The translations under genes were made by a program, and so were the position numbers. Positions 17,256 to 35,254 of a stretch of DNA of 64,000 nt are shown in pieces. This DNA is from Fibrella sp. (GTDB lineage Bacteria > Bacteroidota > Bacteroidia > Cytophagales > Spirosomataceae): NCBI GenBank assembly GCA_043763995.1, contig JAYUKZ010000066.1, positions 722-64,721 of the forward strand, read 5' to 3'. The stretch's first letter is position 1. Every line of letters starts with the position of its first letter. Below the pieces are notes generated by a model. It had not been told where the DNA came from. It saw only the letters and a list, made by a program, of their open reading frames with translations, and ran no database searches.

Positions 17256-20200
17256 TTACGGATTACCCAGTAGATAAGTCAGAAAAAGGACGGCTTGGTT
17301 GTGTTGGTTTACCAGGTCCAGGTACGTTGCCCGGATGGTGAGGGCTTGCTGGATGGCCAGCGAAAATTCGACGTAGCCAATGTCGCCGCTCCTGAATGCC
17401 TGCCGCGCACTGGCCTGGATGATGTCCGCCTGGGTTAGCCCCGTTTGTTCGTAGGCAGACAGAGCGGCGGCAAATTGGCGGTACTGGCCCAGGGCCTGTT
17501 GTTGCTGTTGGGCCAGGGCAAAAAAGCCTGTTTGTCGTTCGGTTTGGGCCAATTGCTCGCCCACGCGGGCAGCCTCGATACGCGCTTTCTGGGCTTTGCC
17601 GAAGAGCGGGAACGTGGCTCCAACCTGCCCGCCGAAAAACCGGTAGCCCGCCCCGAAAAAGATTTCCTGCCCATTGATAAACTGGTTGCCGATGAGCGTT
17701 TGCGAAAAAATGCCGACTAGAAAATCGGGCCGGAGGCGGGCTTGCTCTACCACGCGGGTCTGTTCGGCCACCTGCGTTTGGGCTTCCAGCACACGTACCT
17801 GCGGGTGGTTAGCGGGGGCCAAAAATAGGCTATCGGCCAGAAGCGGCGCGAGTAAGGGGCGCAGGGGCTGGTTGGGCAAGGGTAAATCGGCGGGGCTGTT
17901 GAGCAGGGTTTTCAGCCGAATTTGTGCTGCCAGAAGTGCCGCGTCGAGTTGAGCCAGCCGCACCTGCTGGTCGGCGCGTTGGCTTTGGGCGGTGGCTTTT
18001 TCCAGGTTGCCGGTCTCGCCGGTCTTAAAGCGGAGCGTTGCCGCCTGCACAAATTCGAGCAAAAGTGTGTCTTGTTGGCGGAACAATTGCTGCCGTTGCA
18101 GCAGGTACAGCAGGTCGTAGTAGGCCGATTTCACTTCGTAACGTACCTGGCTGCGGGTGAGGGCCAACGTAGCTTCGCGGCTGGCCACGGCGCGGGTGTT
18201 CAGGGTTTGCAAACGGCGGGTCAGGGTGGGGTTGGGCAGGGTGTGGGTCAGGGTCAGGTTGTTGTCGAACCGGCGGCTGTTATACTGCCCTCCCAGGAGG
18301 GATATTCCCAGCCGCCCGGCCTCGAACGCAGTGGGTCGCAGGGCTTGTTGCTGCGCCACGCCCAGGCTACCCAGCAGCAGTTGCGGGTTACGGGCATCGG
18401 CCTGTTGCAGGGCTTTTTCTAACGTAAACGCCTGTTTTTGACTGCTTTGTGCGTTGACTTTTAAACTGCCCATAGCTAACAAAAACAGCAGCGTAGCAGC
18501 CGCAACACCCGGTTTTGCCTTCGTCTCCTGCGCTTCGTCTGCCATGGCTTTTCGCTCGAAGAGCGAATATAAGATGGGCAATACAAGCAGGGTGAGCAGC
18601 GTGGCCGAGAGTAACCCGCCAATGACCACGGTGGCCAATGGTTTCTGCACTTCGGCCCCCGCCGAGTTGGAAAGGGCCATTGGAATAAACCCAAACGAGG
18701 CCACCAACGCCGTCATAATCACGGGGCGCAACCGGATTTCGGACCCCTGCCGGATAATTTCGGTCAGGTCGGTAAGGCCCTCTTCGTGGCGGAGGCGGTT
18801 GTATTCGGCAATGAGCACAATGCCGTTGAGCACCGCCACCCCAAAAAGCGCAATGAACCCCACGCCCGCCGAAATGCTGAAGGGCATACCCCGCAGTTGC
18901 AACGCAAACACCCCGCCAATGGCCGCCAGCGGAATGGCCATAAAAATCATCAGGCTTTGCCGAACGGAGTTGAAGGTGAAGAACAACAACGCAAAAATCA
19001 GCCCCAGGGCCAGCGGCACGGCTACCATCAGCCGCTGCCGGGCATCGACCAGGTTCTGAAACGTGCCGCCATAGGTGACGGAATAGCCCGGCGGAAACTT
19101 GATTTGGGCTTGTACTTTCTGCTGTAATTCGGTCACGATGCTCTCCACGTCGCGCCCGCCGCGCACGTTGAACCCCAGCGTAATACGGCGGTGGGTTTGA
19201 TCGCGCTGAATCTGGTTGGGGGCCTGTTCAAGGGTCACGGTGGCCAGTTGCGCCAACGGAATCTGCTGTGTTGGCCCGCCCGTGGCGTTGGGAACGGCTA
19301 CCAGCAGGTTCTGTATATCCTCTACCGACTGGCGTTTATTTTCTGCCAGACGCAGCACCAGGTCGTAGCGTTTTTCGCCCTCATAGACCGACCCCGCCGT
19401 TTGCCCCGCAAAGGCGGTGTTTATCGTTTGATTTATATCCGTAACGTTCAGACCAAACTTGGCAATGGCGTTGCGGTCGAGCCGAATCATGATTTGGGCC
19501 AGCCCGCTTACCTGTTCTACGTACAGGTCGGACGTACCGTCGATTTTGCGGGCCAACGCCCCGATTCGGTTGGCTAGTTTGGTGAGTTCGGCTAGGTCTT
19601 CCCCGTAAATTTTCAGGGCCACGTCCTGCCGGGAGCCGGTCATGAGTTCGTTGAACCGCATCTGTACGGGTTGCTGAATGCCAAACGTCACGCCGGGGAT
19701 GGCCGCGAGGGCTTCGCTCATCTTTTCGGCCAGTTCGTTGCGGGTTGTGGCCGATGTCCACTGGTCGCGGGGTTTCAGGATCACCATCATGTCGGCGGCT
19801 TCAATGGGCATGGGGTCGGTGGGAATTTCGCCCGAACCAATTTTGGCCACCACCTGCTCCACTTCGGGAAACTGCGCCAGCAGCACCCGTTCGCCTTTCA
19901 GGGTAGCATCCACGGTTTCGCTGAGCGAACTGCCCGTAAGGGCACGGGTATCGATGGCGAAATCACCTTCGTCCAGTTGAGGGATAAATTCGCCGCCCAG
20001 GCGCGAAAATGTGAACAACGCCGCCCCCAGTAGCAGCAGGGCCACGCCCAAAACCAGTACCCGGTGCTTCAGCGAACGCAGCAGAAGGGGTTCGTAAATC
20101 CGAAAAATATGGCGCATCAGTTTGTCGGAAAAAGACGCTTTGTGCTCTATTTTTTTGCTCAAAAACAGGGCAGAAACCATAGGTACGTAGGTTAGCGACA

Positions 20201-21797
20201 AAATAAACGCGCCCAGAATGGCGAAGGCCACCGTGAGGGCCATGGGCCGAAACATCTTGCCTTCAATGCCCGATAGTGAGAGAATGGGCAGGTAAACAAT
20301 CAAAATAATAATCTCGCCAAAAGCCGCCGCCGACCGAATCCGACTCGCCGCGCCGTAGACCAGTTGGTCGAATTGTGATTGAGTGAATGAGTGAATGTTG
20401 CGAATGAGTGGATGAGTGAATGAGTGAATGAGTGAATGTTTGGCTACTGTGTCGTTTTGTCCGCTCTCGACCATTCGCTCATTCACCAATTCGCTCCTTC
20501 GCAATTGAATATGGTGCAGCGTGGCTTCTACGATAATCACGGCACCGTCAACGATGAGGCCGAAATCGATGGCTCCCAGGCTCATCAGGTTGCCCGACAC
20601 GCCGAGGAGGTTCATCATGCCGATGGCAAAGAGCAACGCCAACGGAATGACTGAAGCCACCACCAAACCCGCCCGCACGTTGCCCAGCAGCAACACCAGC
20701 ACAAAAATTACAATCAAGGCACCTTCCAGCAGGTTCTTTTCCACGGTACCAATGGCACTGTTGACCATCTTGGTGCGGTCCAGGAACGGCACAATGGTCA
20801 GGCCCTGCGGCAAGGTTTGCTGTATTTCGGCAATCTTGGTTTTCACCCGTTTAATGACCGCCGACGAGTTTTCACCCTTAATCATCATCACAATAGCCCC
20901 CACCGTTTCGCCCTGCCCGTTGCGGGTTACGGCCCCGTAGCGCACCGCCGACCCCATGCGCACGGTGGCTACGTCGCGCACCCGGATGGCGGCGGGACGG
21001 TTGTTCATGGGCAACGTACCTGGCCCGCCCGACGACGGCACCACCACGATGTTGCCAATGTCGTCGGTAGACGTAATCAACCCTTCCGACCGGATAAAAT
21101 AGGCGTTGGGTTTTTTGTCGATGTAGGCCCCGCCTGTGTTTTGGTTGTTGCGTTGCAGGGCCTGAAACAGATCGGCCAGGCTCACGCCCACGCTGCGCAG
21201 CCGGTCGGGGTCAATGGCAATTTCGTACTGTTTCACCAGCCCGCCAAAGCCGCTCACGTCGGCCACGCCGGGCGTTCCCAACAGCCCCCGCCGGATGGTC
21301 CAGTCCTGGATAGTGCGCAGTTCGGTGAGCGAAAAACGGCTCTCGAAGCCTTTTTGGGGCACCAGCGTATACTGAAAAATTTCGCCCAGACCGGTAGTGA
21401 CGGGGGCCATGACGGGCGTACCCACCGAAGGCGGAATTTGCCCGGCCACGGTCTGGAGGCGTTCGGCAATCTGGGTTCGTGCCCAATACACGTCGGTGGC
21501 ATCGGTGAAAACCACCGTGACGATAGACAGGCCGAAGCGCGAAAAAGACCGTAACTCAGTGATTCCCGGAATGTTAGACAGGGCCACTTCGATGGGGAAC
21601 GTCACGAGCCGCTCAATGTCTTCGGCCCCCAACGAGGGGCTACTAGTAATGACCTGCACCTGGTTGTTGGTGATGTCGGGTACGGCATCGATGGGCAGTT
21701 GCGTGGCCGACCAGCCGCCCCACAGCACCAAAGCCACCGCAAAAAGGCCAATAATAAGTTTGTTCTCGATGGAGAACCGAATAAGGGAATTCAGCAT
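17256..21797 (-). CDS. czcA: CusA/CzcA heavy-metal RND transporter fused to a C-terminal TolC-like domain
   Basis: IDAVPDITNNQVQV, SLGAIDFGLIVDGAVII, GFIALFGVAVLNG, RLRPVIMTA, QKPLATVVIGGL, then a ~400 aa OEP-like domain; start MLNSL at 21797. Confidence 0.93.
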   Translation of the reverse strand: MLNSLIRFSIENKLIIGLFAVALVLWGGWSATQLPIDAVPDITNNQVQVITSSPSLGAEDIERLVTFPIEVALSNIPGITELRSFSRFGLSIVTVVFTDATDVYWARTQIAERLQTVAGQIPPSVGTPVMAPVTTGLGEIFQYTLVPQKGFESRFSLTELRTIQDWTIRRGLLGTPGVADVSGFGGLVKQYEIAIDPDRLRSVGVSLADLFQALQRNNQNTGGAYIDKKPNAYFIRSEGLITSTDDIGNIVVVPSSGGPGTLPMNNRPAAIRVRDVATVRMGSAVRYGAVTRNGQGETVGAIVMMIKGENSSAVIKRVKTKIAEIQQTLPQGLTIVPFLDRTKMVNSAIGTVEKNLLEGALIVIFVLVLLLGNVRAGLVVASVIPLALLFAIGMMNLLGVSGNLMSLGAIDFGLIVDGAVIIVEATLHHIQLRRSELVNERMVESGQNDTVAKHSLIHSFTHPLIRNIHSFTQSQFDQLVYGAASRIRSAAAFGEIIILIVYLPILSLSGIEGKMFRPMALTVAFAILGAFILSLTYVPMVSALFLSKKIEHKASFSDKLMRHIFRIYEPLLLRSLKHRVLVLGVALLLLGAALFTFSRLGGEFIPQLDEGDFAIDTRALTGSSLSETVDATLKGERVLLAQFPEVEQVVAKIGSGEIPTDPMPIEAADMMVILKPRDQWTSATTRNELAEKMSEALAAIPGVTFGIQQPVQMRFNELMTGSRQDVALKIYGEDLAELTKLANRIGALARKIDGTSDLYVEQVSGLAQIMIRLDRNAIAKFGLNVTDINQTINTAFAGQTAGSVYEGEKRYDLVLRLAENKRQSVEDIQNLLVAVPNATGGPTQQIPLAQLATVTLEQAPNQIQRDQTHRRITLGFNVRGGRDVESIVTELQQKVQAQIKFPPGYSVTYGGTFQNLVDARQRLMVAVPLALGLIFALLFFTFNSVRQSLMIFMAIPLAAIGGVFALQLRGMPFSISAGVGFIALFGVAVLNGIVLIAEYNRLRHEEGLTDLTEIIRQGSEIRLRPVIMTALVASFGFIPMALSNSAGAEVQKPLATVVIGGLLSATLLTLLVLPILYSLFERKAMADEAQETKAKPGVAAATLLFLLAMGSLKVNAQSSQKQAFTLEKALQQADARNPQLLLGSLGVAQQQALRPTAFEAGRLGISLLGGQYNSRRFDNNLTLTHTLPNPTLTRRLQTLNTRAVASREATLALTRSQVRYEVKSAYYDLLYLLQRQQLFRQQDTLLLEFVQAATLRFKTGETGNLEKATAQSQRADQQVRLAQLDAALLAAQIRLKTLLNSPADLPLPNQPLRPLLAPLLADSLFLAPANHPQVRVLEAQTQVAEQTRVVEQARLRPDFLVGIFSQTLIGNQFINGQEIFFGAGYRFFGGQVGATFPLFGKAQKARIEAARVGEQLAQTERQTGFFALAQQQQQALGQYRQFAAALSAYEQTGLTQADIIQASARQAFRSGDIGYVEFSLAIQQALTIRATYLDLVNQHNQAVLFLTYLLGNP
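20381..20504. repeat. Octamer tandem repeat with inverted arm, in frame inside czcA
   Basis: GAGTGAAT at 20381, 20389, 20414, 20422, 20430 (GAGTGGAT at 20406); inverted ATTCGCTC at 20473 and 20489, ATTCACCA at 20481. Confidence 0.85.
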
Positions 21798-27748: not shown

Positions 27749-28195
27749 TCAGTTTAACTTTCGTAGAACCATAAAGCCTATATACTCTCTACCAACCTCA
27801 AATTGGTGAAATTCGTCACCAACCTGGCCATAAAGCTCAAAGTCCTGAATCACCTCCTCATAGAAACGAGTAATACCCATCCGATAGAGCCGAGTGCGAG
27901 CCGTTGTACTTCCGGTGGCGTACACGTATGCTTCGGGGTAGCTATTGAAGAATGCGTACAGCGCAGCTACTACGGTAGCCAACACCTTCTGGGTGTCGCT
28001 GTTGTTCGACACAGCCAAATCGTCAATCTCGCCAGTTTTCTCGTCTTTGTTGCCAAAAGCAAGGTTATAGATGGGGGACTGATTGATCTGTTGGAACTGA
28101 ATTAGTTTGGGAATTGAGCCGTTCGGCCCTTGGCTAAAAAACTCGAAAACGGTTAAATTGCTCTGTGCTTCAAGTGGATACCTCTCCAGATTCAT
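27749..28195 (-). CDS. DUF6934-like protein
   Basis: FEFFSQGPNGSI.K.IQF, YNLAFG, DTQKVLATV, YATGST..RTRLYRMGI (family assignment from memory). Confidence 0.75.
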   Translation of the reverse strand: MNLERYPLEAQSNLTVFEFFSQGPNGSIPKLIQFQQINQSPIYNLAFGNKDEKTGEIDDLAVSNNSDTQKVLATVVAALYAFFNSYPEAYVYATGSTTARTRLYRMGITRFYEEVIQDFELYGQVGDEFHQFEVGREYIGFMVLRKLN

Positions 28196-28423: not shown

Positions 28424-28498
28424 GGGGGTTTAGCTCAGTTGGTTCAGAGCATCTCGTTTACACCGAGAGGGTCGGCGGTTCGAGCCCGTCAATCCCCA
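28424..28498 (+). tRNA. tRNA-Val(TAC)
   Basis: Cloverleaf: acceptor GGGGGTT/AATCCCC, D arm GCTC/GAGC, anticodon arm TCTCG-TTTACAC-CGAGA, T loop TTCGAGC; CCA not encoded. Confidence 0.96.
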
Positions 28499-28543
28499 CA
28501 GAAAGTTAAAAAACCCCGCTGAGACGCTCTCAGCGGGGTTTTT
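28486..28543 (+). repeat. attL (tRNA 3' end plus terminator hairpin 28509-28543)
   Basis: ccgtcaatccccaca-gaaagtta-aaaaaccccgctgagacgctctcagcggggttttt. Confidence 0.9.
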
Positions 28544-28641
28544 GCTTTTTACTTATCAACTTACGTGCCTGTGGTCAACTTATGTAATAATAACGAAAAC
28601 GCTTGTTAGAATTAATTGTAAACAGAGCAGAGATTTTTAAG

Positions 28642-29895
28642 TCACTCCATCTGTTTGTTTTTCTCGTCTAAATCTTCAGAAGGTGTAAAATACTCTACTA
28701 TTTTTATAATGCCTAGAGTTGGTCCAAACATAGCGAAGCTAAAACATTTTAGTGGTATTTCAGCCCTGTATTTTGATTTGTAAATCTCTATTTCTTGTTC
28801 TAGTAGATTAGCATTCATTTCGACTAGATTGAATTTTAATTTATACAAATATATATGCCGTACAATTTTGGAGCTATTACCTAAATGTATATTACAAAGT
28901 GCCATAGTTGTATCCTCTTTTCTTGAAATTTCTTCTAAATATGAATCATAATATTTAAGATTGTTTTTAAATATTTGTTTGTTTCTGTCAAATTTTAAAG
29001 AATCCAATTTTTTTGTTAGAACTATTTTATTGTTCGCCATTTTAGTCATCAACTCTCCAGACATAGTAGCGTTTGATATGGCAACATCGAAGTAATCAAA
29101 ACATTTATTACTCTTTATCTTGTCAGACAAGTATACATAATTTCCGTCAGTTCTTTTGTCTAACTTATAATAAACTTTGTAACAAGGGACTTTTCTGTAT
29201 GAACTCTCATCTAGTAAATTATTTACATTATTCCATTCTTTGTAAGGCTCATCGGATTCAATAAGGTCATCCCATTTCTCCGAAAGAAAAGTGTCAAAGC
29301 TAAACAGCGAGTACACTATCACAATAGCAGATACAATCACGTTGTATGAAAACACAACAGACAAAAACCAAGTAAACATCTGCTTTAAATTATTAAACAA
29401 AAGATAACCAAAATAAATAATCCTATACACTGATAATAAGACTATCAATAAATTAGATAGAAAATACCATTCATATTCTTGAGTTTTTAGATAAATATAA
29501 TAAGGAAAAAAAGCAAATGGTGTTATAAACATTACTGTGCAAATAATAAAAAATATGTATCTCACGATAATTATTTTCAAATTAAAATTTTTCTTAAATA
29601 TCTTATTTGAAAAAATTACCGTGAAAATTATAGGAATTAAATCAATGGTAGTTTGAAAAAGCAAAATAATGTATAGCTTCTGTGCAATAGGCCTTATCTC
29701 AAGTCCAGTCAAGACATAAGTAAAACAAATGAAGAACACAGTATAGAAAGCCAATTGCTTCCACTGTTCGTCTTCATCTTTAATGAACATGTTATTATAA
29801 AACTTATTTTGGTCACTAAAATAGTCTGCTAACTCCTTGATGTAAGACCAAGAGTTGGCTCCGAAAATCTTCAAGAAACTCTGTAATTCTTCCAT
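28642..29895 (-). CDS. AT-rich cargo membrane protein of unknown function
   Basis: 417 aa uninterrupted ORF, strongly AT-rich; ~5-6 hydrophobic segments in residues ~45-200, charged C-terminal half. Confidence 0.75.
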   Translation of the reverse strand: MEELQSFLKIFGANSWSYIKELADYFSDQNKFYNNMFIKDEDEQWKQLAFYTVFFICFTYVLTGLEIRPIAQKLYIILLFQTTIDLIPIIFTVIFSNKIFKKNFNLKIIIVRYIFFIICTVMFITPFAFFPYYIYLKTQEYEWYFLSNLLIVLLSVYRIIYFGYLLFNNLKQMFTWFLSVVFSYNVIVSAIVIVYSLFSFDTFLSEKWDDLIESDEPYKEWNNVNNLLDESSYRKVPCYKVYYKLDKRTDGNYVYLSDKIKSNKCFDYFDVAISNATMSGELMTKMANNKIVLTKKLDSLKFDRNKQIFKNNLKYYDSYLEEISRKEDTTMALCNIHLGNSSKIVRHIYLYKLKFNLVEMNANLLEQEIEIYKSKYRAEIPLKCFSFAMFGPTLGIIKIVEYFTPSEDLDEKNKQME

Positions 29896-30031
29896 TCCGA
29901 GGTTACAAATGATGTGTGTTGATGCGCTGAAGAGGTAAAATTAGGTTAATTTTGGTAGTATATAGTATGCTATTTGGTAAAAAATTCAGTAAATTTACAG
30001 TACATCAAGCAGTAAATCAAACGGTAAAACC

Positions 30032-30430
30032 ATGATAATTCAATCTGTTTCTAACTGTACGGTATGTGGTAATGAGTTCCCGTACCGTAAAAGCAAACAG
30101 TTCTGTTCTAACGCTTGTAAGCAACAAGCATACCTTAAAAGTAAAGCGGGCATTCCCCTACAGGGTTCAAGCCGCAAGGAAATGCCCACTACTGACTTTA
30201 GCTTCACTGAATTTGCTCAATTCAGTGAAGAACATGGTAACTATCATTCTTTCCTGTTCTATTGTTTCTTACGGCGCAATCTGAGCAAGTTAGCGACAGT
30301 AGACACAATTTACCAGTACATCAATAGCTTCTTTATTGAAGATGATGCATATGAAAAGATTACAGGCTCAAAGGCGTATCAAACGTTTAGAGAGGAGTTC
30401 TTGAGCGCAAAATTCACAGTTGGCCCGTAG
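30032..30430 (+). CDS. Small protein with N-terminal CxxC...CSxxC zinc finger
   Basis: CTVCGNEFPYRKSKQFCSNACKQQAY; convergent with and overlapping the primase 3' end by 17 nt. Confidence 0.7.
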   Translation: MIIQSVSNCTVCGNEFPYRKSKQFCSNACKQQAYLKSKAGIPLQGSSRKEMPTTDFSFTEFAQFSEEHGNYHSFLFYCFLRRNLSKLATVDTIYQYINSFFIEDDAYEKITGSKAYQTFREEFLSAKFTVGP

Positions 30431-31292
30431 ATCGTTGGCAAAGCATTTCGTTGAAATCTTTGAATCCTTTGTAGATCGTTGAAAAGTCGATTACGGTAGA
30501 CGTTACCGACTTTATTGTTTCTTGCGCTCTGCGGCCTGTTTTATCCAGATCAAAGAACGTACTAACCCGGCTGTATCGCTTGATGTCGGGTAGTGCTTTG
30601 TCCAGATTCGATAATGAGTTTAGAACAATGACAGAAGCAGGGAACGTTTGCTTGTTGTAATATTCCAAAGCAGAGAGGTAATCAAAGAAGCCTTCAAAAA
30701 CTAGGAGCGTACCGGATTCATTAAATGAAAATGTAGAAATCGTTTTCGGGGCAAATGAGCCTTTAAAATATTGATTCCGTACTTCGTATCCACCGGCATC
30801 ATTTGGGAAGCCTACAGCGAAGTATTTCTTGTTGTTGGTCCGGTAATGAATCTCCCGCAAGTGCCGTGAATATACCTTGCGCGAAATACCCCGCTTTTCA
30901 ACGTATTGTATCAATGCTTGATGTTGGAGCGGTTTAACGTCATTGATGGTCACGCCCGAACTTTCGGCGGTTGGAGAGTAACCGCTAAAAGAAAAGGAAT
31001 TTTTTGGGTCATCTTTCAAAAACGGCTCAAGCTGAGTAACCGCCTCAAGGAATGTGCAGCCGGTTAGATGTTGTACCAGTGAAAGTACATCTCCCTTACC
31101 CTCTCCGCTCCAATCAAAGAAAACGTTCTTGTCAGGATTCACGGCCAATGAAGGGCTTTTTTCATTGGTCTTAGGTGAGCAATAGAAATACTGATTTCCG
31201 GCTCTGTAAGCGGGCATAATGCCCCGACTGGTCAGATAGTCAACAATGGGTATTTGTTTGACTTGTTGAATGATGTGGGCCTCTTTTTGCAC
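30414..31292 (-). CDS. Primase-like protein (degenerate CHC2-type N-domain plus toprim)
   Basis: IPIVDYL, SPKTNEKSPSLAV, FFDWS.GKGDV; toprim VFEGFFDYLS, VLNS, FFDLDKTG, FKDFNEML. Confidence 0.85.
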   Translation of the reverse strand: MQKEAHIIQQVKQIPIVDYLTSRGIMPAYRAGNQYFYCSPKTNEKSPSLAVNPDKNVFFDWSGEGKGDVLSLVQHLTGCTFLEAVTQLEPFLKDDPKNSFSFSGYSPTAESSGVTINDVKPLQHQALIQYVEKRGISRKVYSRHLREIHYRTNNKKYFAVGFPNDAGGYEVRNQYFKGSFAPKTISTFSFNESGTLLVFEGFFDYLSALEYYNKQTFPASVIVLNSLSNLDKALPDIKRYSRVSTFFDLDKTGRRAQETIKSVTSTVIDFSTIYKGFKDFNEMLCQRSTGQL

Positions 31293-31340
31293 GTCTTTTT
31301 TCTTTTAGCGGTATACCGTCTCCGACTCTCCCGCAAACAC

Positions 31341-31554
31341 CTTACTACGTTACTACTCTACTACGATTACAGCTAATTGACTGGTAATCAATCTATCTTC
31401 TGTAGTAGGGCATATACAGTGTAGTAGGGCTATTCGGGGAAATGTAGTAGGGTAAACCAGTTTGTAGTAAGTAAAAAAACCTAACCCTACTACGATTCAA
31501 CTAACTATAAATCAATGGCTTACAATTAATTGTAGTAATGTAGTAGGGTTAGGT
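31341..31554. promoter_or_regulatory. Candidate iteron replication origin of the element
   Basis: 10 GTAGTA hexamers (6 +, 4 -); TGTAGTAGGG at 31401, 31420, 31443, 31539; 15-bp perfect inverted repeat 31479-93 / 31540-54 around an AT-rich spacer. Confidence 0.7.
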
Positions 31555-31561
31555 CTGAAAC

Positions 31562-32818
31562 CTATTGGTTTATGGAACCGGTCAACGTCTGAGAAACCCA
31601 GTAGCCTTTAACCGGATAATCACCACCGGGCCGTCGGGCAGTTATCTGTTCATAGCCTAGCAAGACCAACGCTTTACCAATGTTGTTGTCATTGATTCTG
31701 ATCTTACCTTCTGTCAGAATGGTAAGCCGCCTTGTGATCTCCGTAGCCGTTAGGAACTCCGCTTTCGGATTGCTCTTTGCGTCCGACTTGCCAACCGGCA
31801 AAAAGTAGTGGTTTAGCAGGTCAATTTCCGCCGTAGTGCGTTGGTGTCGGCGGTTGTTGCCTTCTGACCGCTCCAATTCGTCGCGGGTCATTTCAAAGGC
31901 GTACCCATCTTGGAGCAAGGCGTAAGCTTGCGCCCACACCTTGTTAATATCGACATTGGCCCCGTAGCCATTGGCCCCGCCTAAATCGTGCTTGATGCCC
32001 TCTGTTTCAAACACCAACCAACGCACGTTACCCGTTACGTCGGTGAGAAATTCATTTTGGTTGGTGCTACCCAAAAAGCTTGCCCGCCGTTGTATTTGGG
32101 TTTCCCGTTCGGCATAGGGTCGCCGAATCTTGACCCGTTCCTCTGTCAGATAGGCTTTAAATTTATTGGTATCTGATTTTGACAGTGAGGACAGTTCATC
32201 AAGATTAATGAGGATGTTTTCACCCAGCGCGATACGTCCGTCTTTGTTTTCAAAGTCGATGTTCTCTTTGTAGTAGTCCCTCAAAGCGGGGGGACAGAGA
32301 AAGCGGAGAAACGACGTTTTACCGTCATTCTGCTTGCCATACAGCACGAAACATTGCTTGTTGAACTTTGCCCGTCCGATAGCGCAAGCAACGGTTCTAA
32401 CAAGCATTTTCCTGAACATGAGGCCGAACCACTGAGCATCCTGAACGATCACGTAAGAGGCCAACTCCGCTATGTAGTCCGGTTGGGTTTTGTCCCATTG
32501 TGGTAAGCCATCGAAGTACTCATTGAACGGGTCATATTCGGGGATGAAGTCAGACCGTAGCAGAGCCTTTTGTTGGTCTTTGAAACGGTTAAACCCCTTT
32601 TCGTATAACTCTCTGTTGATGTTGTTTTCGTTCAACTCCCGAAAGTCGGGTTCGTTGGTTGCCCTATACTGTAAGACGTTGGAAACCACGTCAAGACGGA
32701 ATTCATACCGGGGGGTAAGATATTCCTGTAGACGCACGATCATTGGAACCTGTTCGCTTTGAGCAGGTTTATTCTTATGTATATTTGTCATTGTCAATGC
32801 CTTAAATACTTGTTTCAA
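31562..32818 (-). CDS. VapE (virulence-associated E)-type P-loop ATPase / replicative helicase candidate
   Basis: Walker A GKQNDGKT, LINLDEL, RRPYAER, RRASFLGSTNQNEFLTD.TGNVRWL; start TTG 32818 or ATG 32791. Confidence 0.87.
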   Translation of the reverse strand: MKQVFKALTMTNIHKNKPAQSEQVPMIVRLQEYLTPRYEFRLDVVSNVLQYRATNEPDFRELNENNINRELYEKGFNRFKDQQKALLRSDFIPEYDPFNEYFDGLPQWDKTQPDYIAELASYVIVQDAQWFGLMFRKMLVRTVACAIGRAKFNKQCFVLYGKQNDGKTSFLRFLCPPALRDYYKENIDFENKDGRIALGENILINLDELSSLSKSDTNKFKAYLTEERVKIRRPYAERETQIQRRASFLGSTNQNEFLTDVTGNVRWLVFETEGIKHDLGGANGYGANVDINKVWAQAYALLQDGYAFEMTRDELERSEGNNRRHQRTTAEIDLLNHYFLPVGKSDAKSNPKAEFLTATEITRRLTILTEGKIRINDNNIGKALVLLGYEQITARRPGGDYPVKGYWVSQTLTGSINQ

Positions 32819-32847
32819 AATCGGTTTGCCGCCGTGACTGAGACTAT

Positions 32848-32887
32848 AAGCCCCCTCACTATTTGCCGTAGTAAGGGGGCTTTTTTG
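32848..32887 (+). terminator. Hairpin with plus-strand T run between integrase and vapE
   Basis: aagccccct...agggggctttttt. Confidence 0.55.
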
Positions 32888-32894
32888 ATGGGTT

Positions 32895-34124
32895 TTATGT
32901 CATGTTGAATTTGCGTTTAGCCAGATCATTCATTTCACGCACTACTGTTGTTTCCATTGTCACGGCGTAATGTTTGGCGGTGGTGGTGAAAGACGAATGA
33001 CCTAAGATGGATTGAAGGGCAACGGGCGTAACCCCGTTGTTCACAAAAAACGTAGCCGCCGATTTGCGGCCTACGTGTGTCGTTAGATGCTTGGAAATGC
33101 CACACATTCCCGCTATCTCCTTGAGATAGTTGTTCATCTTCTGATTCGATATGAGGGGTATTAATTTGCCGTATAGCTCGCAGTAACCCCACCCTTTGTA
33201 CTTCTCAATGAGGGCCAACGCGGGGGGTAAGAGCGGGATAATACAAGGTGCCTGGGTCTTCTGTCGCTTGATGCGTAAGCAGGTCATACCGTCAATAGTA
33301 GTCAGGCAATCTTTAGTGGCTTCGTGTAGGTCAGTGTAAGCCAGCCCCGTATAAATCTGGAACATGAACCCGTCTCTAACCAAGCTGAATGTATCGTTAT
33401 GGAAATGAAAAGCTCTTAGCTTCTCTATCTCCATTTCGTCCAAGTAAACGATGTTTACCCGGTTATGCTTTAACCGGACATTACGGAGCGGGCTACGGGC
33501 TATATGCTCCGAATCTTCTGCCAGATTAAGCACTCGCATAGCTATACGAACGACCTTGTTAGCGTAGCTCTGCGAGTAATTCTTACCCCTCATGTATGTC
33601 GTTACATCGGCCACAAAAACCGGCTTAATTTCGCCTAACCGCAGATTCCAGTTACCCGAATCTTTCAGATAATCCAACAACCGATAGTGGGCCGTAATCA
33701 CGGCTTTCAGGGTTTCTTTCGTCGTGACTTTACCCGTTTGTTCCCGGTAACGCTCAACCATTTGAGTAAGAAGCTCTCTAAACAGCGGTGTCTTTTCAGT
33801 GTAGCCCGCTTGCTTCATTACCATTTCTGAGAGTCGGTTTAGATCAACGGCTTCACCCGACAAGCTTACCTTACTGAACGCTTGCTCAAAGTTGGATTTA
33901 ATGCTTTGTAGCAACTGAGTAGCGGGTACGTTACCCACTACTGAGAACTCCTTTGTATTCAGTTCATCGGCCTTGCAATAGATGCCCGAATGAACGCCCT
34001 TAGATTGGCCGTTGAACTTGATTTCAAACATGATAGGAGCCAACCCTTGCGCGTTTTCGGCCTGTTTACGCCGCCAACAAATGACCCTAAAGGGCTTGAT
34101 TCGATTCGTTTTGGTAGTCGTCAT
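32895..34124 (-). CDS. Tyrosine recombinase/integrase (Bacteroidota Arm-SAM-catalytic type)
   Basis: FMFQIYTGLAYTDL, IKRQKT, NQKMNNYLKEIA, HLTTHVGRKSAAT, LGHSS..TT.KHYA. Confidence 0.95.
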   Translation of the reverse strand: MTTTKTNRIKPFRVICWRRKQAENAQGLAPIMFEIKFNGQSKGVHSGIYCKADELNTKEFSVVGNVPATQLLQSIKSNFEQAFSKVSLSGEAVDLNRLSEMVMKQAGYTEKTPLFRELLTQMVERYREQTGKVTTKETLKAVITAHYRLLDYLKDSGNWNLRLGEIKPVFVADVTTYMRGKNYSQSYANKVVRIAMRVLNLAEDSEHIARSPLRNVRLKHNRVNIVYLDEMEIEKLRAFHFHNDTFSLVRDGFMFQIYTGLAYTDLHEATKDCLTTIDGMTCLRIKRQKTQAPCIIPLLPPALALIEKYKGWGYCELYGKLIPLISNQKMNNYLKEIAGMCGISKHLTTHVGRKSAATFFVNNGVTPVALQSILGHSSFTTTAKHYAVTMETTVVREMNDLAKRKFNMT

Positions 34125-34174
34125 GTATAGGTATTGGTTTGGCCCCATATCGTATTAATATGGAGCTTGAGTTG

Positions 34175-34384
34175 TTAAATCAGTTCGTTTACAGGTACGT
34201 TGAAGACTTCTGCAAGTCTCTTGATTTCATCCGAGTTGGGTTTAAGCTTACCCACTCGTAGCATACCCCAACGTTTTTGGTTGATACCGGTACGGCTATA
34301 GAACCGTTCGTCGAACTTGACACTAAGGCCAATTTTTTCCTCAAATCCCTGAACGGCTAAACTAATAGGTGTCTTCATGTGCAT
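34175..34384 (-). CDS. Small Cro/excisionase-like HTH protein
   Basis: 69 aa with an HTH-like C-terminal half (TGINQKRWGMLRVGKLKPNSDEIKRLAEVFNVPVNELI); divergent from the XRE gene. Confidence 0.7.
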   Translation of the reverse strand: MHMKTPISLAVQGFEEKIGLSVKFDERFYSRTGINQKRWGMLRVGKLKPNSDEIKRLAEVFNVPVNELI

Positions 34385-34525
34385 TATTTTTGTCTGTAAG
34401 TGTGATATTGATGATGCAAAGATTGTTATTAATCACATAATGTGCAAATATTGATAACAATAGGGTCAAATTATTTCCTTTGCATCTCATTATCAATGCG
34501 TTACTTTGCAAAAAACTCACACTTG

Positions 34526-35020
34526 ATGTTAGAAATAGATGTATCCAAGCGTATTAAGACCATCCGGGAGCGGAATGGGCTAACGCAAACAGACGTAGCG
34601 GATAAACTTGGTATGGAACGTAGCAACTACAGCCGTTTAGAAAAGAGGGGTAACGATCTATCCATTAATCAACTACTTCAAATTGCTAATGCTCTGGATG
34701 TTAGGTTGATAGATATACTTTTTCCGCTAGAGATAGACGCAATCCGTAAGGGGGGAATGAATACTATAAAACTACAGGGAGTTGTCCAAGAGCTACAAAA
34801 GCGGAATGACTATTTAATTGAGAATCAAAGAAAGATGGAAGTGATAATGAGCTTTATGATGGAGTTTGCAAAAGGAGTAGAGGGGTTTGGTATCACTGAG
34901 GATGTTTTCAGAAGACAGCTTGACCCAGAAGGTAAGTTAGAGATATGGGCCAAGAGCAAAGCTGCCGATCTATTAAAGGAGCTTAACGATCCTGAGCAGG
35001 ATTCCGACAATGTAGATTAA
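34526..35020 (+). CDS. XRE-family HTH repressor
   Basis: IKTIRERNGLTQTDVADKLGMERSNYSRLEKRG..LSINQL.QIANALDV, then a coiled-coil-like C-terminus; alternative start at 34496. Confidence 0.88.
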   Translation: MLEIDVSKRIKTIRERNGLTQTDVADKLGMERSNYSRLEKRGNDLSINQLLQIANALDVRLIDILFPLEIDAIRKGGMNTIKLQGVVQELQKRNDYLIENQRKMEVIMSFMMEFAKGVEGFGITEDVFRRQLDPEGKLEIWAKSKAADLLKELNDPEQDSDNVD

Positions 35021-35196
35021 GTACTAGCTGACTTACGTAAGTCAGATTAGCTTACGCTTGATATTCAGCCGGTTACGTCGTAGTTCCTCTCTTTACATAT
35101 ATTGCGCTACAAATCTTACGTACCAATCAACTGACTTATTAATCAGTAAGGCTATTAACCTGTTCATTATTAGAGCGTTACAAATTCAGTTCGTTA

Positions 35197-35254
35197 CCGT
35201 CAATCCCCACAAAACGTTTAAAAACCCCGTTGAGACGCTCTCAGCGGGGTTTTT
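35197..35254 (+). repeat. attR
   Basis: ccgtcaatccccaca-aaacgttt-aaaaaccccgttgagacgctctcagcggggttttt. Confidence 0.9.

Follow-up and report, generated by a model that had tools for sequence, protein, structure and literature searches.

The repeat array downstream of vapE

We analysed a 64,000-nt stretch of DNA from Fibrella sp. (GenBank assembly GCA_043763995.1, contig JAYUKZ010000066.1), referred to below as the window, in whose positions all coordinates are given. The subject of the analysis is an array of short repeats that lies between two minus-strand genes of an integrative island. On one side vapE, the gene for a helicase of superfamily 3 (SF3), ends at 31562; on the other side a primase gene with CHC2 and Toprim domains starts at 31292. 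An earlier note on this DNA had named the same two flanking genes and had proposed the array as a candidate replication origin (ori), bound by VapE, of the kind found in the pathogenicity islands of Staphylococcus aureus (SaPIs) and in P4.

The array was read from 31100-31800 and the hexamer GTAGTA was searched on both strands. Ten copies fall within 203 bp (31343-31545), on the plus strand at 31402, 31421, 31444, 31464, 31532 and 31540 and on the minus strand at 31343, 31351, 31359 and 31488. Across the entire window 34 copies were observed, against 11.5 ± 3.7 expected from dinucleotide-preserving shuffles. A sliding scan of the 64 kb ranked 31301-31550 as the top 250-bp segment for hexamer repetition, with 10 copies compared to 6 for the runner-up. 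The second most repetitive stretch, at about 20200-20500, carries six CACTCA or ATTCAC per 250 bp. The longer unit TGTAGTAGGG occurs exactly at 31401, 31420, 31443 and 31539 and nowhere else in the window, and a copy with one mismatch is present on the minus strand at 31485-31494. Within the island, 10-mers matching TGTAGTAGGG with up to one mismatch are confined to 31401-31548. The array and its flanking genes are made up of the following features.

30414-31292, minus strand: DnaG-type primase gene, CHC2 zinc finger and Toprim, 292 residues; GTG start, aligned with an ATG in Larkinella
31339-31554, both orientations: the whole iteron array, candidate ori; ten repeats of 9-10 nt with the consensus tGTAGTA(G/A)G(G/T)
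31340-31365, minus strand: three iterons at the primase-proximal edge, hexamers at 31343, 31351 and 31359, 8-bp spacing
31365-31400, unstranded: spacer I of 36 nt (67% AT); TGATTA at 31385-31390 is conserved
31401-31472, plus strand: four iterons, TGTAGTAGGG at 31401, 31420 and 31443 and TGTAGTAAGT at 31463
31473-31478, unstranded: A-tract; the AAAAAAA run covers 31472-31478, its first A overlapping the iteron at 31463-31472
31479-31493, unstranded: left arm of a 15-nt inverted repeat, ACCTAACCCTACTAC, holding the lone minus-strand iteron at 31485-31494
31494-31531, unstranded: spacer II, 38 nt, 76% AT, the proposed melting site
31531-31554, plus strand: two iterons, at 31531 and 31539 (8 bp apart), and the right arm of the inverted repeat, 31540-31554
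31562-32791, minus strand: vapE, SF3-type P-loop helicase, candidate initiator; ATG at 32791, 409 residues

Most of the description in the earlier note was reproduced. The two-strand search recovered all ten of its hexamer positions, and its three 10-mer copies with 19- and 23-bp spacings (31401, 31420 and 31443) proved exact, the copy at 31539 being a fourth. The repeat finder also agreed with its perfect 15-nt inverted repeat (31479-31493 and 31540-31554) and with the 46 nt between the arms. The note had taken all 46 nt as an AT-rich spacer, however, and this part did not hold: positions 31532-31539 (8 of the 46 nt) belong to another iteron, and the true spacer is therefore 31494-31531, 38 nt.

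The four plus-strand iterons of 31401-31472 are spaced 19, 23 and 20 bp apart, or about two helical turns, and the right arm of the inverted repeat ends at 31554, 7 nt from the vapE stop codon. Both spacers are richer in AT than the island, which averages 59% compared to 67% in spacer I and 76% in spacer II. Spacer II contains the most AT-rich 30-bp segment of the intergenic region (start 31502, 80% AT) as well as a conserved TATAG. Spacers I and II share partial homology (repeat families D5, D7 and D15). Viewed on the plus strand, each has minus-strand iterons on its left and plus-strand iterons on its right: three and four copies, respectively, for spacer I, and one and two for spacer II. 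The whole array is enclosed by an outer inverted repeat of 18 nt, 89% complementary, at 31339-31356 and 31532-31549.

In the direction of vapE transcription, the stop codon is followed by 7 nt, two iterons 8 bp apart, the second of which is extended into a 15-nt arm, the 38-nt spacer and one inverted iteron that forms the other arm. Beyond these come seven T, four iterons (20, 23 and 19 bp), the 36-nt spacer, three inverted iterons 8 bp apart and about 50 nt that lead to the primase start. As single-stranded DNA, 31470-31562 is predicted to fold into a hairpin (-15.5 kcal/mol, z = -4.5), and nothing shows that this fold is relevant.

VapE, its relatives and co-variation with the repeat

Two other starts are possible for vapE, the ATG at 32743 of the public gene call (393 residues), whose residue numbers are followed here, and the TTG at 32818 that opens the longest open reading frame (ORF). 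The protein matches the Pfam domain VapE-like_dom (1.2e-35), and the residues of Walker A (G141 K142), Walker B (D182 E183) and motif C (N228) do not vary across the aligned family. When a family profile built from 24 members was compared with the PDB, the sole sequence match was 7pds_A (E = 1e-18), from the cryo-electron microscopy structure of SaPI1 Rep1 with DNA; identity of VapE to Rep1 is about 15%. An AlphaFold2 (AF2) model of the window VapE, with a predicted local distance difference test score (pLDDT) of 88.5 and a predicted template modelling score (pTM) of 0.78, ends in helix 333-343, helix 352-361 and a beta-hairpin (366-370 and 377-385), which together would form a winged helix. 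The best full-length Foldseek matches to this model were the six chains of 7pds (template modelling score 0.66-0.69, E as low as 7e-17); next came further SF3 primase-helicases (NrS-1, the D5-like proteins of African swine fever virus and mpox, and SaPI5 PriRep5). By sequence and predicted fold, VapE is a homologue of SaPI1 Rep1.

VapE has many homologues in Spirosomataceae and other Cytophagales as well as in Saprospiraceae and Bacteroidales; among named relatives the closest, at 83% identity, is that of Fibrivirga algicola. For comparison, 80 genomic loci of roughly 13 kb each were fetched out of 350 confirmed relatives. The top hexamer-repetitive 250-bp segment of the locus was centred 0-450 bp past the vapE stop in 63 of the 80, so that the homologous elements do have repeats at this position. 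The same placement was found in 26 of the 36 loci in which a DnaG-type primase gene comes next and in 37 of the 44 in which it does not; the next gene in the latter encodes a RepB-type primase, DUF6371 with a zinc ribbon, RhuM, SSB, AbiC, HNH or the host protein Era. The array is kept after vapE whatever gene follows, which indicates that it travels with the vapE 3' end and not with the primase promoter. A metagenomic locus (L022, 2301-5607) carries three vapE-like segments in tandem.

The layout of the array is also shared. Among the 68 loci with at least 6 copies, the median array has 9 copies, spans 212 bp and begins 20 bp past the stop; 8 bp is by far the commonest same-strand spacing, and the typical pattern starts '<<>' and finishes '>>'. 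A perfect inverted repeat of at least 10 nt that contains the repeat unit was found in 57 of 73 loci (median spacer 41 nt, 70% AT), compared to a median of 7 nt in a coding-region control.

Three sister islands, those of the window, Fibrivirga and Larkinella punicea (VapE 73-84% identical), were compared column by column. Invariant columns made up 52 of 60 positions in the iteron hexamers (87%) and 85 of 209 in the rest of the intergenic region (41%; Fisher P = 9e-11), and 8 of the 10 iterons are preserved in all three islands. These include two of the three minus-strand iterons at 31340-31365, the third being kept in two islands, three of the four at 31401-31472, where 31464 is degenerate in the sisters, and both of those at 31531 and 31539. 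The extended 15-nt inverted repeat is limited to the window and its closest relative. Larkinella retains complementarity of the 9-nt cores only, and the general feature is thus a pair of inverted iterons rather than a 15-nt palindrome. Outside the iterons, CCGCTAAA (31304-31311), TGATTA (31385-31390) and TATAG on the minus strand (31505-31509) are invariant in the three islands, and TGATTA/AATCAAT-like motifs occur in both spacers. Such conserved segments could be sites for host factors.

Unlike the layout, the sequence of the repeat differs by lineage. The unit is a variation on TGTAGTAAG, and its variants include TGTAGTA(G/A)G, TCGAGTAAG, TCAGGTAAG, ACTAAGTAAG, TGTGGTAAG, TGTAGTGA, TGTAGCCAT, ATAGTAAGAT and others, with TGTAGTA, CGAGTA, CAGGTA and TAAGTA among the lineage classes. 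For the 37 loci with a primase, alignment columns were compared between the two most populous repeat classes, TGTAGTA (11 loci) and CGAGTA (15 loci). A perfect separation of these classes was seen at eleven columns of VapE, five of which lie in the C-terminal domain of roughly 60 residues: 352, 354 and 361, where the second helix begins and ends, and 370 and 371 in the first wing strand. In the primase no column separated the two classes perfectly (best mutual information 0.88). When every locus with a clear array is taken, Arg occupies position 370 in 29 of the 31 whose repeat starts with TGT and in none of the 30 with CGA, CAG, TAA or other starts; in 27 of these 30 the residue is Tyr, Trp, Phe or His, mostly Tyr. 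The second wing strand likewise differs by class, with Pro-Val/Ile accompanying TGTAG, Ser/Thr accompanying CGAG and Tyr-Gln accompanying TAAGTA. Two Saprospiraceae loci (L036 and L047) group with the TGTAG type in a neighbour-joining tree of the ATPase core and with the CGAGTA type in a tree of the C-terminal domain.

Pairwise similarity was scored by how well it separates loci of the same repeat class from loci of different classes, as the area under the curve (AUC), and by how often the nearest neighbour shares the class.

C-terminal domain: AUC 0.66, nearest neighbour shares class in 33 of 60
ATPase core: AUC 0.58, nearest neighbour shares class in 27 of 60
N-terminal domain: AUC 0.53, nearest neighbour shares class in 23 of 60

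These alignments indicate that the repeat class tracks residues in the predicted recognition helix and wing of VapE. The check that the earlier note had proposed, whether repeat and VapE co-vary in homologous elements, thus came out positive for the predicted winged helix, with shared ancestry and linkage still contained in the signal.

Candidate origin and alternative explanations

In SaPIs, Rep is both initiator and helicase, and its C-terminal winged helix reads penta- or hexanucleotide iterons (PMC9371898). The SaPI ori has 6-12 iterons immediately downstream of rep and an AT-rich region near its centre, with at least 2 iterons on each side in opposite directions, and Rep binds and melts it with no ATP and no loader required (PMC9371898). 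The window locus resembles SaPI1 Rep1 (PDB 7PDS) and the SaPIbov1 ori (Ubeda 2007, 2012; Qiao et al. 2022, PMC9371898) in that its SF3 helicase is of the VapE family and ends in a winged helix. It shares with them short iterons right after the rep stop, an AT-rich centre with opposed iterons on both sides, an iteron sequence that varies between islands, an adjacent primase gene and a setting in an integrase-bearing chromosomal island with a cI-like regulator. Ten iterons are present, within the SaPI range of 6-12, with the nearest repeat arm 7 nt past the vapE stop, and at least two opposed iterons stand on each side of spacer I and of the array taken as a whole.

The differences are several. 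The host here is a Spirosomataceae-like member of the Bacteroidota, whereas SaPI hosts are Firmicutes, and the gene order is rep-ori-pri and not pri-rep-ori. The conserved repeat unit is 9-10 nt with a core hexamer, compared to 5-6 nt in SaPIs, and there are two paralogous units of inverted iterons around an AT-rich spacer instead of one. The island, moreover, is only 6.7 kb and has no detectable packaging or capsid-size genes. Its primase is DnaG-type (CHC2 and Toprim), whereas SaPI primases are of another, primase-polymerase type.

P4 encodes an SF3-type alpha primase-helicase that binds short octamer repeats of the origin through its C-terminal domain, and it is a small satellite that sits at a tRNA gene. 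The likeness lies in the SF3-type helicase, the short origin repeats and the small integrative element at a tRNA gene. P4, however, fuses primase and helicase and needs crr several kb from ori, whereas here the genes are separate and the island has no second repeat cluster. The absence of a crr-like cluster weakens the comparison with P4, and a P4-type ori plus crr was discarded as a candidate. Iteron plasmids (pPS10, RK2, F and R6K, with RepA, TrfA or Pi initiators) also place initiator sites beside an AT-rich unwinding element and rep; their iterons are direct repeats of 17-22 bp bound by WH1-WH2 initiators, and the host DnaB is recruited via DnaA and DnaC (reviewed in PMC4980987). The repeats of the window, in contrast, are short and in both orientations, the initiator would itself be the helicase, and no DnaA box was noted.

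We consider it probable, with a likelihood of roughly 80%, that the array is the vegetative replication origin of the island and works like a SaPI origin. The support for this reading is comparative. Every computational test that was run agrees with the SaPI analogy drawn in the earlier note (homology to Rep1, iterons after rep, co-variation), while the P4 half of its analogy is the weaker one. The design is most likely one already known from SaPIs and not a new kind of element.

We infer the steps of binding, melting, self-loading, priming and regulation as follows. VapE, encoded immediately upstream of the array, would be both the initiator and the replicative SF3 helicase. Its C-terminal winged helix would read the 9-10-nt iterons (tGTAGTAGGG), which stand in opposed groups around two related AT-rich spacers. 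VapE assemblies on the opposed iterons may then melt an AT-rich spacer without ATP, most likely the one at 31494-31531, and VapE would load itself as a 3'-5' hexameric helicase with no separate loader. The adjoining DnaG-type primase would prime, and a host polymerase would complete synthesis. Expression is probably under the control of the divergent cI-like/HTH pair (HTH, helix-turn-helix) at the far end of the int-vapE operon.

Several observations weigh against an origin. Spacer II has one iteron on its left where the SaPI rule wants two, and the AT-richness of the spacers is moderate (67-76%). The pairwise statistics are likewise moderate only (AUC 0.66); the residue-370 pattern is clearer, and both ignore phylogeny, so that the co-variation is confounded by the shared ancestry of the loci. 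Furthermore, the DNA that encodes the C-terminal domain lies less than 100 bp from the array, and recombination would therefore move the two together without any interaction between them. The primase zinc-finger columns (residues about 31-64), which are equally near the array on its other side, also show a raised association (mutual information 0.70-0.88); this could reflect physical linkage or recognition of a template sequence by the primase. The sequence was present in one public run, a biofilm metagenome for which assembled unitigs were the only data used. That source metagenome has many foreign tRNA-Val unitigs, in which no attP junction of a circular form could be recognised, and the depth of the island was 56 compared to 164 in the flanks. 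With its low depth and no circular junction seen, the island shows nothing in that sample that would point to active replication. Finally, among the papers searched, none was found that links VapE to iterons in Bacteroidota or describes these islands.

The array also lies directly upstream of the primase start at 31292, and it might be a transcriptional control region, where VapE or an HTH protein of the island binds a promoter or operators that serve the primase gene. The conserved CCGCTAAA between the array and the primase start codon would suit this role, as would the partial association of primase N-terminal columns with the repeat class. However, the array stays at the vapE 3' end in 37 of the 44 loci without a DnaG-type primase, even where the next gene is unrelated, belongs to the host or is on the opposite strand. 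Ten sites over 216 bp around AT-rich spacers also far exceed the needs of an operator, and neither a sigma-70-like nor a Bacteroidota TAnnTTTG motif was found in the array, whereas TAnnTTTG does precede the 132-residue and HTH_3 genes of the island. A pure promoter reading was dropped, as the array holds no sigma-70-like site, terminator or TAnnTTTG. We regard a control region as an unlikely explanation, and one that may coexist with an origin. In iteron plasmids, Rep autoregulation occurs alongside origin function.

A DNA-transfer signal, either a pac-like site for a helper-phage terminase or an origin of transfer (oriT) for mobilisation, is less likely still. The island has the look of a small phage satellite or of a mobilisable island, so that a transfer signal of some kind must be present, some pac sites contain short repeats in many copies, and one related locus has a NikA-like gene downstream. 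Nevertheless, Pfam, PHROGs and PADLOC identified no relaxase, terminase or other packaging gene in the island, and the oriT-like role offered in the earlier note is disfavoured for want of any detectable relaxase there; oriT was rejected as no island ORF has a relaxase domain at E <= 0.01. The repeat class, moreover, follows the winged helix of the island's own VapE and not a helper-encoded protein, and the position immediately after vapE is constant.

The least probable explanation, which we all but set aside, is that the repeats are arm-type sites of the island's tyrosine integrase, or excision-factor sites: the N-terminal domain of the integrase does bind arm DNA by its annotation (Arm-DNA-bind_5), and proteins of this kind attach to short repeated sites, but the array is about 2.8 kb from attL and about 3.6 kb from attR, no 10-mer copy is found near either att site even with one mismatch, and many related loci retain the array though their integrase is distant or of another lineage. 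The arm sites of lambda-type and Bacteroides integrases flank the core at distances of no more than a few hundred bp, and the arm-site alternative raised previously is disfavoured by the distance of 2.8-3.6 kb. An RNA element was likewise rejected, since an Rfam scan of the island returned only the tRNA above threshold; a 'mir-991' match at 31468-31564 scored 27 bits against a gathering score of 100 and merely reflects the inverted repeat.

The island and its family

The island measures 6,711 bp (28486-35196) and is inserted in the 3' end of a tRNA-Val gene. Besides the array, vapE and the primase gene, it and its borders comprise the following features.

28424-28499: tRNA-Val(tac) gene
28478-28543, plus strand: attL, the 3' end of tRNA-Val(tac) with a terminator copy; core 28486-28500
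28642-29895, minus strand: cargo gene, 417 residues, about 26% GC, N-terminal transmembrane helices
30032-30430, plus strand: zinc-ribbon-like protein, 132 residues, conserved in the closest sister islands only
32895-34148, minus strand: Bacteroidota-type tyrosine integrase with Arm-DNA-bind_5, SAM_5 and a catalytic domain
34175-34384, minus strand: weak HTH protein, 69 residues, whose gene opens the leftward operon; its position is that of a cro- or xis-like gene
34442-35020, plus strand: HTH_3 (cI-like) regulator, 192 residues, divergent from the int-vapE operon
35189-35254, plus strand: attR, an 89%-identical copy of attL as a 66-nt direct repeat; core 35197-35211

The crossover core of 15 nt, CCGTCAATCCCCACA, is identical in both att sites, and the island itself carries a copy of the tRNA 3' end together with the terminator. 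GC content is 55-63% in the flanks and falls to 25-47% between the att repeats. In the source metagenome, unitigs of the flanks had depths of 164-181, compared to 54-56 for the two island unitigs (28471-34870 and 34841-35226), and the assembly breaks into unitigs exactly at the att repeats. The empty tRNA-Val site was recovered as a 45-nt unitig of depth 97 in which GTCGGCGGTTCGAGC (28471-28485) is joined directly to 35197-35226. These depths and the empty-site junction indicate an insertion polymorphism and not replication. The island is a discrete 6,711-bp insertion carried by about one third of the source population. The host DNA just upstream of the tRNA-Val integration site encodes a DUF6934 protein (E = 1e-53) at 27749-28195 on the minus strand.

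Of the features that mark a phage-inducible chromosomal island or phage satellite, integrase, flanking att repeats and a divergent regulator pair (HTH_3 and the small HTH protein) are all present. A Bacteroidota -7 promoter motif stands at 34385-34392, ahead of the HTH_3 gene, and a further one, TAATTTTG (29947-29954), stands ahead of the 132-residue gene, with an isolated GTAGTA directly after it at 29955. The 132-residue protein carries a zinc-ribbon-like CxxC...C motif in its N-terminal part, shares 63% identity with its Fibrivirga counterpart and was found in only 5 of the 80 loci. Homologues of the HTH proteins occur in 25-28 of the 80, those of the 69-residue protein at the same position in 25 loci. 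Both the 132-residue protein and the HTH proteins are thus found in fewer loci than the arrays are, which makes them less likely candidates for the protein that binds the repeats. Genes for hijacking a helper (small terminase, capsid-size redirection, phage interference) were not detected in any island ORF by Pfam, PHROG or PADLOC.

The 417-residue cargo gene, at about 26% GC, stands apart from the 45%-GC island and the 58%-GC host. Its product gave no Pfam, PHROG or PADLOC match, and a word search of 5.8 billion proteins matched only the protein itself; a full HMMER search returned 19 distant relatives (22-29% identity), none with a domain. The AF2 model is confident (pLDDT 82) and mostly helical, with no fold match in the PDB (best E = 0.1), and residues about 48-200 look like 4-5 transmembrane helices. 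A role in defence or abortive infection is speculation. In the Fibrivirga algicola sister island (L001, 8847-11488), also at tRNA-Val, the same core genes are accompanied by a cargo slot that holds a 368-residue unclassified protein and a 509-residue reverse transcriptase (RVT_1). The contents of this slot suggest that the cargo between the 132-residue gene and the tRNA is variable and may be related to defence.

In being a very small island of integrase and replication genes, with few cargo genes and no capsid-remodelling genes, the element also resembles the minimal marine satellites PICMI (PMC10803314) and the virion-encapsidated integrative mobile elements (VEIMEs; PMC9618062), families reported from Vibrionaceae and marine plankton. 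The VEIME paper (PMC9618062) was found to mention neither VapE nor iterons. In viral contigs close relatives are rare, the best being 43% identical and found on 10-12-kb contigs, two of which also have a GTAGTA array after vapE. Relatives of 43% identity and two arrays are too little evidence, and we therefore do not call the family satellites. A plasmid collection yielded distant VapE relatives only (at most 33% identity over the full length), on large plasmids.

We put forward tentatively, as a possibility that we would not yet favour, that the island in the window belongs to a large, so far undescribed family of replicative Bacteroidota islands of about 6-13 kb, which may be phage satellites or defence-carrying hitchhikers, and in which wing residues and iterons form a readable code. 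Such a family, spread over Cytophagales, Saprospiraceae and Bacteroidales, would combine an integrase, a cI/cro-like switch, a Rep1-like VapE helicase and an iteron origin with a variable primase and cargo. In the proposed code, Arg370 would go with TGT-start iterons and Tyr370 with CGA, CAG and TAA.

To our knowledge, small replicative islands and phage satellites are almost undescribed in environmental Bacteroidota. The candidate origin would extend the SaPI-type design of an initiator-helicase with downstream iterons from Firmicutes to this group, and it suggests an annotation rule by which the origin of such islands would be the repeat cluster within about 250 bp past the vapE stop. The 80 related loci would offer dozens of natural VapE/iteron pairs with the same architecture and different repeats, a data set on how SF3 self-loading helicases read their origins. 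A possible use is the design of orthogonal replicons for Cytophagales, for which there are few genetic tools. The main value would come from data on origin recognition across the whole family, and from the possibility of phage satellites in Bacteroidota.

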